Below the pieces are notes generated by a model, which was not told the DNA's origin, searched no databases, and saw nothing but the letters and a program-made list of their open reading frames with translations. Shown piece after piece: positions 49,233 through 64,000 of a DNA stretch of 64,000 nucleotides. Numbering within the stretch: the stretch's first letter is position 1; each line of letters starts with the position of its first letter. A program made the translations under genes and the position numbers. The stretch comes from Acidimicrobiia bacterium (GTDB taxonomy: Bacteria > Actinomycetota > Acidimicrobiia > Spongiisociales > ZC4RG35), in contig DATDPT010000069.1 of the NCBI GenBank assembly GCA_035292605.1, positions 56,599 through 120,598 on the forward strand, in the 5' to 3' direction.

Positions 49233-50474
49233 ATGAGCAGAAGAGAGGGAGGGCTCTTTCGACGGTGCCACACATGCGGACAGCGGGTCCCATCTCCATT
49301 GAAGACCTGCGGCTACGTCGATCAGGCCGGTTCGGTGTGTGGAGGTGAGGTGGGCTGGGGCTTTGTGTTCGACGTTGCACTTCCTGGTGCGAAGCGTCGG
49401 AAGAGAGTCACTCGTTCCGGGTTCTCCACGAAGAAGCAAGCCGTCGCAGCGATGCGCGAGGTGCAGGAGGCCGACGCCAAAGGGAGCCTCGTGGAGCCCA
49501 CGAGGCTGACGGTCGGTGAGTACCTGGCCGAGTGGCTGGCAGCTACTCGAAGCCGCGTAGGTGACGATCTCAGTGCTACCGGATGGCGTGACTACGAGAT
49601 TCACGTCAGACGGCACATCACACGCAGGATTGAGGAGGTGCCACTTCAGGCTCTCGACCGCAACCACGTGAAGGCTCTTTATGCGTGGGTTCAGGAGGGG
49701 AACTCGTCTCGGGGAGGGCGCCGGCCATCACCCAAGACAGTCCACAACATCCATCTCACGCTCCACAGAGCCCTCGAAGACGCGGTCGCTGACGGGTTGA
49801 TCGCCCGCAACCCAGCGACGAGGGCTCGCAAGGCGCCGAAAGCAGGTCGGGAAATGCTCACCTGGGATGAGGACCAGCTGCGCAGCTTCTTCCACGCCAG
49901 CGCCGAGGATCGCCTCTTCCCCTTATGGCAGATGACAGCCATGTCCGGGATGCGTCGGGGCGAGATCCTGGGGCTGCGGTGGGACGACGTCGACTTCAAG
50001 TCCTCGACGGTCACCGTCAACCGCCAGTGGAGGCGGGGTGAAAAGGGGTTGGTCCTGGCGCCACCAAAGACCGAGCGGAGCCGCCGTACCATCGACCTCG
50101 ACACTGAGACCGTCACAGTCCTCAAGAAATGGCGAACGGCGCAGCTCGAGGAGCAGATGGCCTACGACGGCGAGTGGCAAGACAACGGGTTCATCTTCAC
50201 CCGCAAGGATGGAAGACGCCACGACGTCGACGTTGTGTCTCAGCACTTCGATCGACTCGTGGCCCGGGCCGGGGTACCGCCTGTCAGGTTCCACGACATG
50301 AGGCATACCCACGCAACTCTGCTTCTCCTAGCCGGTGTCCCAGCCCATGTCGTCTCAATGCGTCTTGGGCATCGAAGCGTGGCGTTCACCTTGCAGCAGT
50401 ATGCGCACGTACTCCCCCAACAGCAGGCGGATGCGATCAAGTTGTTGGCGATACGCCTCTTCGGTGAAACGTAG
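49233..50474 (+). CDS. int: Tyrosine-type integrase with N-terminal zinc-ribbon-like segment
   Basis: Catalytic blocks R...HDMRHTHATLLL...LGHRS...Y. N-terminal CHTCGQ...CGYVDQAGSVCGG. Confidence 0.9.
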   Translation: MSRREGGLFRRCHTCGQRVPSPLKTCGYVDQAGSVCGGEVGWGFVFDVALPGAKRRKRVTRSGFSTKKQAVAAMREVQEADAKGSLVEPTRLTVGEYLAEWLAATRSRVGDDLSATGWRDYEIHVRRHITRRIEEVPLQALDRNHVKALYAWVQEGNSSRGGRRPSPKTVHNIHLTLHRALEDAVADGLIARNPATRARKAPKAGREMLTWDEDQLRSFFHASAEDRLFPLWQMTAMSGMRRGEILGLRWDDVDFKSSTVTVNRQWRRGEKGLVLAPPKTERSRRTIDLDTETVTVLKKWRTAQLEEQMAYDGEWQDNGFIFTRKDGRRHDVDVVSQHFDRLVARAGVPPVRFHDMRHTHATLLLLAGVPAHVVSMRLGHRSVAFTLQQYAHVLPQQQADAIKLLAIRLFGET

Positions 50475-57067: not shown

Positions 57068-59146
57068 TTAGGTACGCGGCCGAGATGTAACGAGGCCGCG
57101 GTCGTGGTAGTCAAGAATCGCTCGCTCGGCCGCTGAGCGGACTTCGTCTTCGGGTGCGTTTGATACGTCGATCATCAGGTCGATCGCCTCGGCCACAGGA
57201 ATCGGTCCCTGTGTGAGTGCTTCAAAGAGAGCTGCCGTTGAGAGTGTGAGCTCCAAGATGTTGGTCCGGAACGACCTTGCGTCCCTCTCGATGAGCACGT
57301 ACCACGGTCTGACACTCGTGAGATGAGGATGTCGAGAGAGACGAAGAAATCGGTGGGGGGCTGTGAGACCGAGAAGTCCAGCAGGAGCGAAATCCGCCGC
57401 GTCCGAGTCAGGTGTGGGTTCGGAGTAGAGGACCTCGGATCGGGTCCCAACGAGGAGAACCTGGTCTCGGATCAGACCGGCCTGCTCTCCGTCTGGACCG
57501 TTTGAATCCAGGCACGAAAGCACAAGTGCCTTGAACCGACCAAAATCGGACGGAAGCCCGGCATCATCGAGGACCCATTGCTCAAGAAAACGTGACCGGC
57601 TGGAGTCTCCAAGTTCACTGTACTGGGCGAATAACACTTCGAAAGGACGACTCAGAAAGTGGTACTTTTTTGTGAGGATGCTTCGACAGTATCGCTCAAG
57701 TGCCTCCTCATCCATCGATAGCTCGATCAGCGAACGACCTTCGTGTTGCGTGAGTTGCTCACGCGCAACCTCGGGAATCTCACCATTCCTGCGCATCGTT
57801 AATCGATACTCCCTGTCGGAATAAAGGCGAACCAATGCTCTATTGAAGCCGTCGATGGCCATTCTTCGGGTCTCCTTCTCTTGATAGTCAACGTGCACAG
57901 CCCCTATCAGGCGGTCGATCCAGCGCTTGCCAGTGTCATCGCTTGGCAGTGAGTACACGCTCCGACTCTTCTCGGCGATGGCTCCGCCAATGTCCGGATC
58001 CAATGCTGCGACGAGAGCTTCTGCGAGTTGATCGATCTCGCGCGGGTCGCTTACTAGAAGCACATTCTCTCTATCGATCAGAGGTTCGGTGGTTCGCTGG
58101 TATTCGGCGACATCCTTGGTGAGGATCACGCATTTTCCGGCACTCATGGCTTCACGGGGGATCTGGGGTCGATGAATCGTGATGGGAAACCTGTTCTCGA
58201 GAAAGGCAACAACCGAGGCGCGCGCCAGTATCTCCGGGACTCTCCAAGGTGGGAGGTAGGGAACAGCGATGAACCGTTCGGTGAGATTCCTGTTCTCAAC
58301 GTCACGAAGCAACCCTTCAAACCACGGCCCGCTCTGGCCGGTCACGAACAAGAGGCAGAAGTCAAGGCCTTGGTTCTGAAGGCGCTCAGCGGCCGCAATG
58401 AGCTCAGTGGTGCCCTTGAACTCCCCAAGCTTTCCGTAGACGAGAACCACCGGAGACGAGGTGGCCGTTGGCCCGATATACCGATAGTCGGACGAGCCAT
58501 CCAGGTCGGTCGCGAGGTCACGTAAGTCCAAAGGCATTGTCGCCTTGAACAGGGAGCGAGGCGCGAACAAGGGCCGCCCCACAATCATGCTTGCTGGGTC
58601 GGCTCCTAACTCCAAGACGGTTTGGGCCGCCGTCGGACTAGTAAGTATGCGATCCGCCTGCGCCAGTGCGGCCCCGTAAACGGAGCGCCTCGCAATCGAA
58701 GTAGAAAGGCGGGTGATGTCGCTTCCGGCGTGCATCAGATAAAGGGGGACCCCGGTTGCGGTGGCCGCAACCTGGGCAGCGACCCCAAACGGTTCCAGGT
58801 AGATGCCGATGACCGCTCGACAGTGCCCTTCATTGATGACTCGGACTGCCTCGCCCGAGAGTCGAGTGACCAAAGCGTTGGTCGTTGGGATCGAGTAGGA
58901 ACCTGACGATGACTCGAGATCATGGACCTTGACCCGACTCAGAGAGGGAAATTGATCAGACGCGTAAAGCCACTCGTTCGGCCGATGGAACTGGAGCTGA
59001 CTTGCTGATGGAACACGACCCGTCCCCACGACGTGCACATCATTGCCGGCTTCTGCTAGGCGATGTGTGAGCCATAGAGCTTGGGCGCTTGTCCCGCCTA
59101 TCAGGGGAGGGAACTTGCCGATGATGCATAGCGCAGTCGAGTCCAT
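57068..59146 (-). CDS. GT4-family glycosyltransferase with ~280-aa C-terminal extension
   Basis: N-terminal CIIGKFPPLIGGTSAQALWLTHRLAEAGNDVHVV and a GT-B C-terminal half (REAMSAGKCVILT); lower GC. Confidence 0.7.
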   Translation of the reverse strand: MDSTALCIIGKFPPLIGGTSAQALWLTHRLAEAGNDVHVVGTGRVPSASQLQFHRPNEWLYASDQFPSLSRVKVHDLESSSGSYSIPTTNALVTRLSGEAVRVINEGHCRAVIGIYLEPFGVAAQVAATATGVPLYLMHAGSDITRLSTSIARRSVYGAALAQADRILTSPTAAQTVLELGADPASMIVGRPLFAPRSLFKATMPLDLRDLATDLDGSSDYRYIGPTATSSPVVLVYGKLGEFKGTTELIAAAERLQNQGLDFCLLFVTGQSGPWFEGLLRDVENRNLTERFIAVPYLPPWRVPEILARASVVAFLENRFPITIHRPQIPREAMSAGKCVILTKDVAEYQRTTEPLIDRENVLLVSDPREIDQLAEALVAALDPDIGGAIAEKSRSVYSLPSDDTGKRWIDRLIGAVHVDYQEKETRRMAIDGFNRALVRLYSDREYRLTMRRNGEIPEVAREQLTQHEGRSLIELSMDEEALERYCRSILTKKYHFLSRPFEVLFAQYSELGDSSRSRFLEQWVLDDAGLPSDFGRFKALVLSCLDSNGPDGEQAGLIRDQVLLVGTRSEVLYSEPTPDSDAADFAPAGLLGLTAPHRFLRLSRHPHLTSVRPWYVLIERDARSFRTNILELTLSTAALFEALTQGPIPVAEAIDLMIDVSNAPEDEVRSAAERAILDYHDRGLVTSRPRT

Positions 59147-59164: not shown

Positions 59165-59998
59165 CTAACTGGGGAGGTCTCTTGAGATCGACTTGAGGCG
59201 GCCGACTTCGACAACTAGATCGGCGAGCATCTCAAACTTGGCGTCACGTTCCAGGATGATGATGCTCGGCCGCTGGACATTCAAGGCGTCCTCGTAAACG
59301 GAGAAGATCTCCTCCTGAATCGGAGCATCATGTGAATCAATAAGGAAACTGTCATGCCCGACCGAATAGCCGGCCACGTGGAATTGAGTCCATGGGACGC
59401 CTGCAATGTCGCCGAAGAGGTCATCCAAGTCACCAGCTATTCCGTTTGTCGCATTCAGCCACACGTTCGTTACGTCGACCAGGAGAGTTGCTCCAGTCCG
59501 TCGATGAAGCTCAGCGAGGAATTCCCCCCAACCGTACGTTGCCCCTGGGAGGCGTACCATTTCAGTGATCGTCTCGAGAACCAGAGGCAATCCGAGTTCC
59601 TCCCTCGCGATGTCAGCATTGTTGGCGATGACATCCAGGCCGCCTTGAGTGCGCCAAACGGGTGAGAGGTGCCAGATATCGAATCCTCCGGCGCGAGAGA
59701 TTGCCACATGTTCGCTGAAGTACGGCGGCTCGATAAGGTCTAGTAACCGCTTGAGATCGCCAAACATAGGCATCTCGCGAGGGTCTGATGACCCCAGAGA
59801 CATACTGACCCCATGTGGTATTAGTTCGAAGGACTCTCGAAGGGCTTCCAGTTCTCCGATGCGATCATTGGTTAATGGAAGGAATTGTTCGACAAGGATC
59901 TCCAGGACGTCAAGCTCGCTTGACAGCTCATGAAACTGGTCCGCCAAGGGCCGACGGTATCCGACTCCGAACTTCGTTTCGACAATGGACACGCTCAC
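59165..59998 (-). CDS. DUF692/MNIO-family enzyme (MbnB/TglH-like)
   Basis: Conserved DUF692 blocks HGVSMSLGS, EHVAISRAGGFD, LVLETITE, LLVDVTNVWLN, FHVAGYS, FLIDSHD. GTG start overlapping (GTGA) the AsnB-like stop. Confidence 0.75.
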   Translation of the reverse strand: MSVSIVETKFGVGYRRPLADQFHELSSELDVLEILVEQFLPLTNDRIGELEALRESFELIPHGVSMSLGSSDPREMPMFGDLKRLLDLIEPPYFSEHVAISRAGGFDIWHLSPVWRTQGGLDVIANNADIAREELGLPLVLETITEMVRLPGATYGWGEFLAELHRRTGATLLVDVTNVWLNATNGIAGDLDDLFGDIAGVPWTQFHVAGYSVGHDSFLIDSHDAPIQEEIFSVYEDALNVQRPSIIILERDAKFEMLADLVVEVGRLKSISRDLPS

Positions 59999-61638
59999 TT
60001 GGCCAGCTCCAGCCAGAACTCGGCGTACCACGTCTTCAGCACGGGGGGAAAGGGAATACGAGAGAACCACTCAGGCATGGCAGAGGCAATCTCAGACGCG
60101 GCGGCCTCAGTCGGCGGCTGTCGGAATCCCGCGTCGAACGCATTCGGAAGGCCAGATTTGGGCCGCGTCATGAATCTCTCCGGGAACTCATGCATAGATC
60201 TCAGCAATTGCCTCAGTAGGGGTTTCTGCTCCCAGGATTGAGTGTGAAGTCCGCGTTCAACCAAGCTGTCAGCGAAGGCGACGTTCTCCGTCGCCAGATA
60301 CGGCACACGGACCTCGAATCCGTGAGCCATTGACGCGTGGTCAAAGGGCAAGAGATGGGCATCGATAAGTTGGTGAGTCCTGTCAGTATTGGCGAACATC
60401 GAGTGTTGATACTGAGCACCGGCCCCGACGTTCTCAATGGCAGTTAGAACGGTATTGATGAGATCAGTGCTGTGTTCGACTTGGGAGTGTCTTCGAACGA
60501 TCCGTTCGATCCGCGGGCTCGGGTCTGCGTGCCACGGATAGCCCAAGTAGAGTTCGTCTGCGCCTTCTCCGCAGATCACCACCTTCGATTCTGGGAATTC
60601 CTTGCGAAGGCGAGCGAACATCCAGTACATCGTATAGGCGGAACTACCCCCCATCGAGAGAGCTGCTTTGCCGGGGCTCTCGAACAGGCCATCAAGTTCG
60701 GGTTGAACAGTCAGCAGCCGAATGCCGGCTTCGCGAGCTACATAGCGCGACCATTCCGCGTCCGGCGACCCAGGTGGGCCGACATAGACCCCCACCATTC
60801 TGTCTTTGAACCCCAGTCGAGACGCGAGTAGTGCAAGTAGTGATGAGTCAATCCCACCGGAAAGGAGTAGAAGAACTTCGGCTCCGGTGCCGTGAGTGAT
60901 GGTGTCGGTGACAGCTCTATCCAGAATGGAGAGTTGCTCTGCAACGATCGCTTCATCCGATCCGAGCGATCGAGTCCCGATTCGGCCGAGTTGTTCCCAC
61001 GTCTCCGAGATCGATCTAGGTCCATCCACCTCGATCTGGACAACGCTCGACGGTGGCACCTGTTCGATCCCTTCGATGACGCTGTTGCGGTAGTCCGAGA
61101 AGCCAAGGACGAAACGATTGACGAAGAAATCTCGGTTGAGGGCGATCCCATCCTCGGCCTGGACGCCGGCGACATGTGATGAGAGTGTTACCGCCATGCC
61201 GTCCTGAGCACGGTAAAGGAACAAAGGCTTGATCCCCTCCCTGTCTCGAGCTGCGACCACTCGCTTGTTCCTTTTGTCAACGATGACGATCGCGAACATT
61301 CCGTTCAGATCGTCGAAGAGGCGAATGCCGCGATATCGGTATGCCTCGCGGAGGAAGTCGTACTCGTTTCGAATTCCCCTTAATCCGTATGCGCTGGAGA
61401 GCGCCCGGTAGTTCCAGATCTCTCCGTTGAGTAGGGCGATGATCTCCTGGCCATCGTTCGATGATCCGATGCTGGCTTGCGGAGACTCGATAGCAAGGCG
61501 CACAAAGCCGGCGGCGTACCAAGCGTCGGCTTCCAACCAGTGCTCATCAGGGCCACGATCTTTGATTCGGAAGAGTCCTGTCTGGATACTTCCCCGCTCG
61601 AGTTCAGGAGCGTTGACGGTAACGACGATCCCACACAA
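59995..61638 (-). CDS. Asparagine-synthetase-like glutamine amidotransferase
   Basis: N-terminal MCGIVV (Ntn Cys) and PP-loop LLSGGIDSS; 547 aa. Confidence 0.85.
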   Translation of the reverse strand: MCGIVVTVNAPELERGSIQTGLFRIKDRGPDEHWLEADAWYAAGFVRLAIESPQASIGSSNDGQEIIALLNGEIWNYRALSSAYGLRGIRNEYDFLREAYRYRGIRLFDDLNGMFAIVIVDKRNKRVVAARDREGIKPLFLYRAQDGMAVTLSSHVAGVQAEDGIALNRDFFVNRFVLGFSDYRNSVIEGIEQVPPSSVVQIEVDGPRSISETWEQLGRIGTRSLGSDEAIVAEQLSILDRAVTDTITHGTGAEVLLLLSGGIDSSLLALLASRLGFKDRMVGVYVGPPGSPDAEWSRYVAREAGIRLLTVQPELDGLFESPGKAALSMGGSSAYTMYWMFARLRKEFPESKVVICGEGADELYLGYPWHADPSPRIERIVRRHSQVEHSTDLINTVLTAIENVGAGAQYQHSMFANTDRTHQLIDAHLLPFDHASMAHGFEVRVPYLATENVAFADSLVERGLHTQSWEQKPLLRQLLRSMHEFPERFMTRPKSGLPNAFDAGFRQPPTEAAASEIASAMPEWFSRIPFPPVLKTWYAEFWLELAK

Positions 61639-61732: not shown

Positions 61733-62254
61733 ATGATCACTAGGAAGGGCATACTAGATGGGGCCGCGTGGAGCGACCTGCCGTTGACGCTCGCCGTCGT
61801 ACTGTTGAGTCTCCGCGGTTACTCCACATTAACGAGCAAGTCAGTCCTTGGCAGTAGCGAGTACGGCATGTTCGCGAGAGGCCATCGTGAAATCGTACGA
61901 GGGTTTCCCATGGTCGAACTCCTTCAATCAGATGGGAGCACGACGGAGCTTCTTCACCCTAGATCTCTACTACCGATCGAAGCGGGTCATGCTCTGAACT
62001 GCTTTGCGGCAGTCTTTTTCGGCCACGACAGCGCAGCAAAGGCCCGTCTCGCAGACGTCGTCGTATCGCGACTCAACAAGGGGCACTGGCCGGCTCGCGG
62101 AGAACGGTGGCCTTCGCCGTCGCGTATCCCCGGGGTGCACTACATCGGGATGCGGGTCATCTCAGCAACGATCGATCTCAGGCCGCTTGCTCTGGGCTCG
62201 AGTGAGGTAGTGACGCCGAGCACGGTGGTTTTCGACTGGAGGTCAGATGGGTAG
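61733..62254 (+). CDS. Hypothetical protein
   Basis: Internal start MITRKG... (172 aa). 8-nt overlap with the downstream gene. Confidence 0.4.
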   Translation: MITRKGILDGAAWSDLPLTLAVVLLSLRGYSTLTSKSVLGSSEYGMFARGHREIVRGFPMVELLQSDGSTTELLHPRSLLPIEAGHALNCFAAVFFGHDSAAKARLADVVVSRLNKGHWPARGERWPSPSRIPGVHYIGMRVISATIDLRPLALGSSEVVTPSTVVFDWRSDG

Positions 62255-63098
62255 GTCACTCGACGAGAACCGGCCGATCGAAGACCGATTGTTACTCACA
62301 AAGTTAACGTGTGGTGCCGCTCTCATCAGGGTCGTCTGGGATTCGCCGAATCCTAAGTTTGTCAGCGACGTTGCTGAAGCGGTTGGTGAGTCTCGTGACT
62401 CTCCCACTCGGCTGACCACGGCATGGCAGCTGTATGCAATGCGAGCCGCGATCGCTCCGTGCGTTGTCTATTGGTGCGCGGGGAAGGGCAAGTGGGCGGC
62501 CGTGTCGGGCCTCATGTCAGTTGCAGTCTCCGCTCGCACGATGGCTCTCGTTAGAGGCTCGATCCCGGGGAGGTTGAGCACACGGCGACACCTGCATGAA
62601 GTCTCTTCGGTCATCGCGGTGTCGGACTTCTTGATTGCTGTCGGGCCATCGCAGGAGGCATCAGCACTCGCTCAACGAACTCGAGGTCGGGCGCTTTCGG
62701 GAGCTCAATTGATGGTGGCCGCCGTATACACACAAGCAGGTATCGCCAAACTGAAAAATGGCTGGTCGGGTTGGATCTCTCAAGGATCTTCACCGCGAAA
62801 CGCTCTTGCGATGTCGGGCACAGCGTTCGGTCGATTGCTAAGCAAAGAAGACCTGAGTGCTGCCATTGCTCGACCTGTCGTTCTGCTGGAACTTCTGTCA
62901 CTACCACTGGTTCTCGTGGGGGACACCGGTCGGCGGATTGTCGGCTTGTCTAATGTGAGTATTCACATTGGTAGCAACTACGCGATGCGCATCTCCTACT
63001 GGCACCTCGCGTGGCTAACGTCGGTCCTCTTGCTTCTCCCAGATTGCCTCGTGAAGAGACTGGCTTCCGCGTTGAGTTGGATCGGAGGGAGACACTGA
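62247..63098 (+). CDS. Polytopic membrane protein
   Basis: 283 aa with several hydrophobic helices. Confidence 0.45.
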   Translation: MGRSLDENRPIEDRLLLTKLTCGAALIRVVWDSPNPKFVSDVAEAVGESRDSPTRLTTAWQLYAMRAAIAPCVVYWCAGKGKWAAVSGLMSVAVSARTMALVRGSIPGRLSTRRHLHEVSSVIAVSDFLIAVGPSQEASALAQRTRGRALSGAQLMVAAVYTQAGIAKLKNGWSGWISQGSSPRNALAMSGTAFGRLLSKEDLSAAIARPVVLLELLSLPLVLVGDTGRRIVGLSNVSIHIGSNYAMRISYWHLAWLTSVLLLLPDCLVKRLASALSWIGGRH

Positions 63099-63147: not shown

Positions 63148-63306
63148 CTAGGTGCCGTGACTCCCGGTGCAACCGCTGCAACCCTCGCTGGTGCATCCAT
63201 CTGATGTGGCACATGAGTCGCCACTCTCAGCGGAATCGGCGTACGGGTCCACAACCTCCTTGATTGCGAACAGAGTCGCATGCTCCTGAGTGGTTGGGAG
63301 AGTCAT
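63148..63306 (-). CDS. Small precursor-peptide-like ORF (52 aa) with a Cys/Ser/Thr/Gly-rich C-terminal core
   Basis: Start ATG preceded by AAGGAGGA at 6-nt spacing. Product MTLPTTQEHATLFAIKEVVDPYADSAESGDSCATSDGCTSEGCSGCTGSHGT. The N-terminal extension in the ORF track has no RBS. Confidence 0.5.
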   Translation of the reverse strand: MTLPTTQEHATLFAIKEVVDPYADSAESGDSCATSDGCTSEGCSGCTGSHGT

Positions 63307-63598
63307 AACCCGTCCTCCTTGCCATAGGGACAACAAGTCTATGCCGGGAGTGAGCCGGACGTCAACGCATCCGAACGATTTTCTCGGGAGAGCTGCAGCC
63401 AAGATGGCCCATTGTGAGCGGATCACTAGGACGAGGCTGCTATCTGCCCCGGGGACCTGGTGCAGGCGACCGTCGTGGTCGCGTGAGTCGACCTCATTCA
63501 TTCTTGTCGAGGCTGGGCGCACCAAGGCCGCCAAAGCGCCCAGCCGAACAAAGTCACCAGCGACGCCTTCAAATCTAGTATGACGTCTTACGCATGGC

Positions 63599-63964
63599 TC
63601 ACTTGAATCGGTAGCGGTTCCACATGGCCGTTTCCTCCCGGGCGGTTTGGGCCATTTCGTCGAGGATCTTGCAAAGGGATTCTGACCCCTGCTCGAGACT
63701 CAAATGTCTCTCAGCTTGGGCGGTGAACCCGCCTGCGTCGATCAGAGAAGTCCCTACGGCCATGTAGGAGGTTCCGTTTGAGCGCCTGACCTCGATGGTG
63801 AGCTGCTCGCCGTTCCACTCCAAGGCATAGATTCCCTCATGGTCAACGACATAGGGGATGGGATGCGAATTCAGAATCTGTTCCACGACTCGGTGGGCAT
63901 GTGCTGTGAGCTCGGAGAGCCGGACACTGTCATCGGCGATCTCGTTGACGGCTTGCTCGACCAT
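63599..63964 (-). CDS. Hypothetical protein, possibly continuing beyond the window edge
   Basis: Open upstream to position 64000 with no stop. Confidence 0.35.
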   Translation of the reverse strand: MVEQAVNEIADDSVRLSELTAHAHRVVEQILNSHPIPYVVDHEGIYALEWNGEQLTIEVRRSNGTSYMAVGTSLIDAGGFTAQAERHLSLEQGSESLCKILDEMAQTAREETAMWNRYRFK

Positions 63965-64000
63965 CGAGACAAGGTCTGGGTCGGAGTCGTCGGTGTGGTC

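Follow-up and report, generated by a model that had tools for sequence, protein, structure and literature searches.

The window analysed here is a 64,000-nucleotide stretch of DNA from an Acidimicrobiia bacterium. Near its end, on the minus strand, lies a small gene (63148-63306, start at 63306, stop included) that encodes 52 amino acids: MTLPTTQEHATLFAIKEVVDPYADSAESGDSCATSDGCTSEGCSGCTGSHGT. The peptide consists of a leader-like part (residues 1-31) and a cysteine core (residues 32-52, with C32, C38, C43, and C46), and its C-terminus is GSHGT. An earlier note on this DNA had described the leader as acidic, and its composition agrees, with six Asp/Glu against one Lys and one His. The N-terminus, MTLPTTQEHATLFAIKEVVD, is likewise acidic; it carries no hydrophobic h-region, and there is no Pfam match. 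Every cysteine is followed by a small residue, as had been claimed (A, T, S, and T, respectively), and no Lys adjoins any of them. The spacing of the cysteines had been given as CxxxxCxxxCxxC; it is in fact Cx5Cx4Cx2C, so two of the gaps were off by one.

The strong ribosome-binding site attributed to this open reading frame (ORF) is present: the Shine-Dalgarno (SD) sequence AAGGAGGA (63313-63320, minus strand) is followed by a 6-nt spacer, CGGGTT, and then by the ATG at 63304-63306. Among the 2,133 start/ORF combinations of 30-120 aa in the window, only 4 are preceded by an SD match of 7 nt or more. Of these ORFs, none but this reading frame combines 4 or more Cys with 18 or more small residues in its last 25 aa, and no other pairs a strong SD with a Cys-rich tail. 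Upstream lies a promoter-like -35/-10 pair (TTGACG, 18 nt, TAGACT; 63336-63365, minus strand); this is a consensus match only, with 1 found against 0.6 expected, and thus constitutes weak evidence. No intrinsic terminator or significant hairpin was found after the ORF, and a search of 56-64 kb of the window against Rfam families gave no match and no structured RNA tied to the ORF. A second SD-like sequence, AAGGAGG, occurs inside the ORF (63249-63260, minus strand; codons K16-E17-V18), with a GTG (V19) 2 nt later; a gap that small makes a start there implausible, and the sequence is probably coincidental.

Three enzyme genes lie downstream on this strand. The first encodes an MNIO (DUF692; 59165-59998, minus strand) of 277 aa, with a PF05114 match of 7e-57 and a start that overlaps the stop of the second gene described below. 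The earlier note placed the peptide about 3 kb from the MNIO gene; the peptide stop lies 3.1 kb from the MNIO start. The same note saw in the residues after the Cys the context in which methanobactin-type MNIOs form oxazolone/thioamide pairs; by its NCBIfam scores, this MNIO is not of the methanobactin type: 168 bits for BufB (cut-off 310) and 128 bits for HvfB (cut-off 360), both below equivalog level, versus 59 bits for MbnB (cut-off 325). For ApyH, the score is 55 bits (cut-off 400). The best solved relative is TglH (8hci_D, E 7.5e-19). Residues H62, H97, E142, D175, N178, H207, D221, H223, E250, and D252 are invariant in the subfamily; the same metal-ligand pattern is invariant in comparison with annotated bufferin maturases, and an ERD motif is also common to both. 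Beyond the subfamily, the next relative is P0009 (37% identical), whose surroundings are those of a canonical bufferin cluster: BufA1, DoxX, ECF sigma/NrsF, and HvfC_N.

The second gene (59995-61638, minus strand) encodes a 547-aa asparagine-synthetase-like (AS-like), glutamine-dependent amidotransferase (Pfam Asn_synthase 5e-32, GATase_7 7e-18). The protein has the N-terminus M-C-G-I-V, with Cys2, and an NGE motif; its score for NCBIfam asn_synth_AEB, 171 bits, is below the cut-off of 267. A role as lasso cyclase was considered and rejected: the score is 55 bits versus a cut-off of 525, the glutaminase Cys is kept, and the cluster contains no lasso protease.

The third gene (57068-59146, minus strand) encodes a fusion protein of 692 aa. 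Approximately residues 1-410 (57917-59146) form a GT-B glycosyltransferase (GT) domain of the GT4/GT1 type (Glycos_transf_1 7e-11, Glyco_trans_1_4 4e-8), in which GK.G..KG and E317...R331-E332 are invariant across the family. The C-terminal approximately 270 residues are conserved in all relatives. Sequence searches with this region (residues 425-692; 57068-57874, minus strand) gave only a sub-threshold NGO1945_C match and no HvfC_N (DUF2063) match, and a sequence-profile search against PDB sequences gave no meaningful match. Fold comparison was informative: the predicted model scored 9.4 with TglI (8hci_C, 178 residues aligned), 8.7 with NGO1945 (3dee_A), 8.0 and 7.0 with TbiB1 and TfuB1 (both lasso-peptide RREs), 6.7 with MbnC, and 6.5 with PqqD. 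On the basis of these fold matches, we read the 692-aa protein as a glycosyltransferase joined to an MNIO partner that consists of a DUF2063-like helical part and an RRE-like winged helix, the latter modelled with low confidence (pLDDT ~50). A partner protein of predicted DUF2063-like/RRE fold is thus encoded next to the MNIO. The GT-partner fusion is conserved in all members of the subfamily.

Two plus-strand genes lie between the peptide gene and the enzymes. One encodes a 173-aa protein with one N-terminal hydrophobic segment and no family match (61733-62254); the other encodes a 283-aa hydrophobic protein (62247-63098) with sub-threshold HTTM (E 0.04) and DUF6343 matches and no homologue in the distant clusters. 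The peptide gene is convergent with these hydrophobic ORFs, in line with the claim that it converges with membrane-protein genes. A second candidate precursor had been suspected in an ORF that runs off the window. On the ENA contig that contains the window (L001, k141_4221249; the stretch is also present in Logan run SRR3989295), this ORF (window 63599-64000, minus strand; L001 5807-6400) encodes a 197-aa protein that is not Cys-rich, has no family match, and is absent from related clusters; it was therefore rejected as a precursor.

The earlier note proposed a search for homologous small ORFs at related MNIO (DUF692) clusters and a check that the Cys spacing is conserved. A word-indexed homologue search with the 52-aa peptide gave no match. 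Conversely, phmmer against 1.84 billion representative proteins returned three matches: P0078, which is the 117-aa call of the peptide itself, P0079, and P0080. P0080 was rejected as a spurious repeat protein; P0079 (53 aa, E 2e-11, MTTRGAAQDMESLFTITMVEDPYADSVEGGDACASEGGCDSSGCSGCTGSHGN) is the sole true homologue in this search, and it is encoded in the most closely related MNIO cluster. The two peptides are 59-62% identical, with 30/51 identities in an ungapped alignment. The start of P0079 aligns with M1 of the window peptide, and the length is kept as well. Residues 1-10 have diverged; the conserved positions comprise LF.I, DPYADS, GCSGCTGSHG, and all four Cys at identical spacing. P0079 is found on exactly two JGI contigs (longest 9,282 bp), as is the MNIO P0002, with 77% identity to that of the window. 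These contigs reproduce the unusual layout of the window: the 53-aa gene lies upstream of opposite-strand genes, one of which, of 199 aa, stands at the place of the 173-aa gene, and the AS-like and MNIO genes follow. The neighboring enzymes are 58-77% identical between the two clusters (58% for the GT fusion); at approximately 60% identity, the peptide is conserved to a similar degree. On the same contigs (JGI samples 3300043331 and 3300056388), an extra plus-strand gene of 45 aa stands between the gene for the 53-aa precursor and that for the AS-like enzyme; it may be a second precursor.

Within the leader, the segment TLFAIKEVVDPYADS (residues 11-25; 63232-63276, minus strand) is conserved, with LF.I..V.DPYADS identical in P0079. 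It is a putative recognition sequence for the RRE. Distant precursors carry related leader motifs: LFRITEV, PFLITEV, RFAVTEL/T, and LAVVEIP. The motif is soft: already in P0079, FAIKEV has become FTITMV and has lost its Glu.

The subfamily extends to six distant clusters (L090, L003, L005-7, L092, L088, and L004), in which the MNIO is 41-53% identical to that of the window and the GT-partner fusion is always present. Analogous small ORFs occur at every distant member with upstream DNA to hand. Each is 50-85 aa long, preceded by an SD, and combines a hydrophobic-F/A-x-[IV]-x-x-[VT] leader motif with Cys flanked by G/A/S; across the homologous precursors, SD-like sequences lie 4-9 nt upstream of the start. 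The clusters form two subgroups. Subgroup (a) has an AS-like gene and comprises L090, where a 50-aa peptide (MNVPVTDTLAVVEIPAITSTSDAACGSCSGGGSCGGGGSCGGCGSCGGSV) lies directly upstream of the AS-like, MNIO, and fusion genes, and L003, with a 61-aa peptide (...LALTEFKLSALDTSAGEGCESCSGGSDCGGGGGCNGCSSCSGGDGAQ); AS-like homologues hold the same position in L090, L003, and L089. Subgroup (b) has a MurC-like ligase and comprises L005-7, L092, L088, and L004, whose peptides carry LFRITEV, PFLITEV, or RFAVTEL, then 1-4 units of GA[AGS]C[AS][IVLQA]. The spacing Cx2Cx5Cx5Cx2Cx2C is common to L090 and L003; judged by this pattern, the window core reads as a shortened version of it. In the family alignment, all eight peptides have in common a strand-like, hydrophobic motif in the leader and Cys with small neighboring residues, and the linkage of small ORF and MNIO recurs in 8 related contexts. 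In L090 and L005, the precursor directly precedes the enzymes, whereas in the window the two opposite-strand genes split them, which counts against the precursor reading.

Subgroup (b) shows further features. The AS-like gene is replaced by a ligase at MurC equivalog level (350 bits vs cut-off 335), whose start overlaps the stop of the GT-partner gene, and a further GT4-like gene follows (ligase/GT loci: L005 3694-5022 and 5013-6200; L004 3323-4648). The ligase raises the question of a muramyl-type sugar donor. The idea that the AS-like enzyme and the Mur ligase share a carboxylate amidation was set aside: the ligase is a MurC equivalog, not MurT/GatD-like, and the idea remains speculation. 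In L005-L007 and L092 (for example, L006 1080-3377), on four independent contigs, the cluster is divergently adjacent to NifU-like, Rieske, and SufB/D genes for Fe-S assembly, a possible sign of a connection with metal or redox stress.

The family is rare. The MNIO subfamily amounts to eight 90%-identity clusters among 5.8 billion, the window's own included, and the family as a whole to about ten metagenome contigs; a metagenome scan added at least one further locus, L088. Two pattern-limited scans of 185,579 species genomes, one with a single protein and one with alignment A1, returned no subfamily member among the matches listed, which were only bufferin-type MNIOs from Proteobacteria at no more than 36% identity.

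The observations on the reading frame, on its SD and conservation, and on the domains encoded in the cluster point in one direction: we consider it likely that the 52-aa ORF is a genuine, independently translated RiPP precursor (A) peptide with the maturation route proposed below. The central claim of the earlier note, that the small ORF is a precursor for the nearby MNIO, is supported by the orthologue and by the analogous ORFs in distant clusters. Judged from sequence comparison, a substrate family is very probably assigned here to a small MNIO subfamily known only from metagenomes.

We propose the following route. The strand-like TLFAIKEVVDPYADS in the acidic leader would be bound by the RRE-like C-terminal domain of the 692-aa fusion, and the partner domain would present the Cys/Ser/Thr/Gly-rich core to the multi-iron MNIO. 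The MNIO may then oxidise some or all of C32, C38, C43, and C46. The tethered GT4-type domain would attach a sugar to the peptide while it is bound, at Ser/Thr or at a sulfur. RiPP carboxylates are turned into amides or nitriles by AS-like enzymes (PMC13060819); with TsrC and PesC as models (PMC13060819), the glutamine-dependent AS-like enzyme would amidate a carboxylate, either at the C-terminus or at Asp/Glu.

What the MNIO makes of the cysteines can be graded by analogy. MNIOs of the BufB/HvfB type install 5-thiooxazoles on Cys, a modification diagnosed by a loss of 4 Da per Cys and absorbance near 302 nm (PMC13097082). The BufB and HvfB scores, together with the position of P0009 in a bufferin cluster, make thiooxazole a better guess than oxazolone/thioamide. 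We give a 5-thiooxazole, as in bufferins and captophorins, roughly even chances, and hold an oxazolone/thioamide to be rather unlikely; the remaining probability falls to other chemistry. On the captophorin analogy, the default guess is that the product is probably a thiol/heterocycle-rich, metal-binding (copper) peptide.

The peptide could also be a true precursor on which the MNIO acts elsewhere than Cys, by Asp/Thr hydroxylation or backbone cleavage, with the Cys serving as thiols, disulfides, or glycosylation sites. MNIO subfamilies do differ in chemistry, including Asp hydroxylation, Asn cleavage, and others (PMC13174530, PMC13060819), and this MNIO falls under every equivalog cut-off. 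The MNIO of the only other described MNIO plus AS-like cluster hydroxylates Asp (PMC13060819), and the window core offers D30, D36, and E41 as candidate Asp/Glu targets; yet the L090 core has no Asp/Glu after its first Cys, and among residue types Cys alone recurs in all cores of both subgroups. The nearest characterised MNIO relatives, BufB, HvfB, TglH, and MbnB, all modify Cys. We regard action away from Cys as unlikely.

A very improbable reading takes the real product to be a small protein of 117-128 aa with a Cys-rich tail, started at 63498 or 63534. The frame is open back to 63534, and two metagenome gene callers extended the peptide to 117 aa (P0078) and 124 aa (P0081). However, these upstream starts have no SD, the promoter-like site falls within the extension, already in its 117-aa form, and the strong SD stands exactly before the M1 that matches the start of the orthologue. 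Moreover, the orthologue was called at 53 aa, and all homologues have 50-85 aa. An exact look-up of the 52-aa peptide and of a 301-aa reading of the MNIO gave no match, the public calls being 117 aa and 277 aa. Public annotations mis-set the starts of both the GT fusion (57068-59146) and the peptide (63148-63534), both on the minus strand; PGAP calls the fusion from residue 233 only (P0059, 460 aa). With such starts, standard genome-mining pipelines would miss both fusion and precursor.

It is highly improbable that the peptide is an unmodified, metallothionein-like, Cys-rich metal-binding peptide, or an unrelated bacteriocin, that lies near the MNIO by chance. Opposite-strand genes do separate it from the enzymes, and Cys/His-rich tails can bind metals without modification; against this, such peptides co-occur with the MNIO subfamily in eight independent contexts and nowhere else in 1.84 billion representative proteins, and no YcaO, Lan, or radical-SAM gene lies within 10 kb on either side. 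Finally, a chance ORF in non-coding DNA can practically be dismissed: the ORF is short, and GC at codon positions (GC3) does not discriminate frames in this island, but a length-matched orthologue has approximately 60% identity and keeps all Cys, and the strong SD plus Cys-rich tail has no equal in the window.

Read as a RiPP precursor, the peptide and its cluster can be compared with known systems. Bufferins and captophorins (BufA-BufB-BufC; HvfA-HvfB-HvfC; fontiphorin) are copper-binding peptides whose Cys are converted to 5-thiooxazoles. The window MNIO scores best against BufB/HvfB and shares their metal-ligand pattern and ERD motif, the partner has an NGO1945-like fold, and the core is Cys-rich with a small residue after each Cys. 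Unlike bufferin precursors, the window peptide lacks a Sec signal peptide, a DUF2282 domain, and any EGKCG or Cys-Lys motif. The MNIO is below BufB/HvfB equivalog level, and the partner, itself fused to a GT, carries no DUF2063/HvfC_N Pfam signature and resembles the bufferin partner in fold alone. In addition, an AS-like enzyme is present, there are no clear DoxX or sigma/anti-sigma genes, and the host belongs to the Acidimicrobiia instead of the Pseudomonadota. The methanobactin system (MbnA-MbnB-MbnC) is similar in its short leader-core precursor without signal peptide, in the small residue after Cys, and in the pairing of MNIO and partner, but nothing in the window cluster reaches MbnB or MbnC equivalog level. 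In the 3-thiaglutamate pathway (TglA/TglHI; pearlins), a PEARL enzyme appends the one C-terminal Cys that TglH modifies, whereas the four Cys of the window peptide are internal and a PEARL gene is absent.

Microcin B17-type linear azole peptides have Gly/Ser/Cys-rich cores and are made by a YcaO/McbBCD cyclodehydratase. The L090 core, GSCSGGGSCGGGGSCGGCGSCGG, resembles them, and the window core is a less glycine-rich version. Here, however, there is no YcaO/McbBCD, with no YcaO family among the Pfam matches for the 19 genes of L001, and heterocycles would come oxidatively from the MNIO. Nitrilobacillins (pes: MNIO PesH, partner PesI, AS-like PesC) are the only described RiPP type with both an MNIO and an AS-like enzyme (PMC13060819). 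Their precursors lack a Cys core and terminate in R(V/T)DN (PMC13060819), whereas the window peptide ends in GSHGT. Furthermore, PesH hydroxylates Asp, and pes clusters occur in Bacillota and have no glycosyltransferase.

MNIO enzymes attract active study for the unusual peptide chemistry that they perform, and identifying their substrates is a recognised bottleneck; a 2025 survey of the MNIO landscape called precursor assignment in minor MNIO groups 'not straightforward' (PMC12452194). That survey does not describe a GT-partner fusion (PMC12452194), and none was found in full-text literature on MNIO with glycosyl, Mur ligase, or asparagine synthetase. Three features of the family are absent from the literature searched: a leader-binding partner fused to a glycosyltransferase; precursors of about 50 aa without signal peptide, some with microcin B17-like cores; and a cluster with either an AS-like amidotransferase or a MurC-like ligase. 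The cluster is a new architectural variant of MNIO RiPP clusters, and the finding is its substrate gene. As a compact four-gene set, it is open to synthesis and direct expression, and could show whether MNIO-made heterocycles get glycosylated.

A bolder reading, which we find doubtful but worth stating, is that of a new RiPP class: a short peptide rich in Gly/Ser/Thr/Cys, with Cys heterocycles made oxidatively by an MNIO and not by a YcaO, glycosylated by the GT that is fused to the leader-binding partner, possibly on the thiooxazole sulfur, then amidated, and encoded on a mobile island with Tiamat. If so, the product would be a glycosylated poly-thiooxazole peptide, with a role that may be antibiotic or anti-phage and not copper buffering.

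The genomic setting adds several observations. A search for an att-type direct repeat matching the end of the tRNA-Met was negative, and none of the genes of the island could be recognised as encoding a protease or an exporter. Together, the RiPP cluster and TmtA occupy a stretch of approximately 16 kb with lower GC content (57-59% vs 60-68%). This stretch is bounded by a tyrosine integrase (49233-50474, plus strand) and a tRNA-Met (L001 4132-4208) that sits 1.8 kb past the window end; with these borders, it looks like an integrated island. TmtA, of the Tiamat anti-phage defence (51052-56472, plus strand; 1806 aa), adjoins the RiPP cluster and is full-length, matching PADLOC PDLC03971 with 1473 bits over profile positions 12-1780 of 1782.
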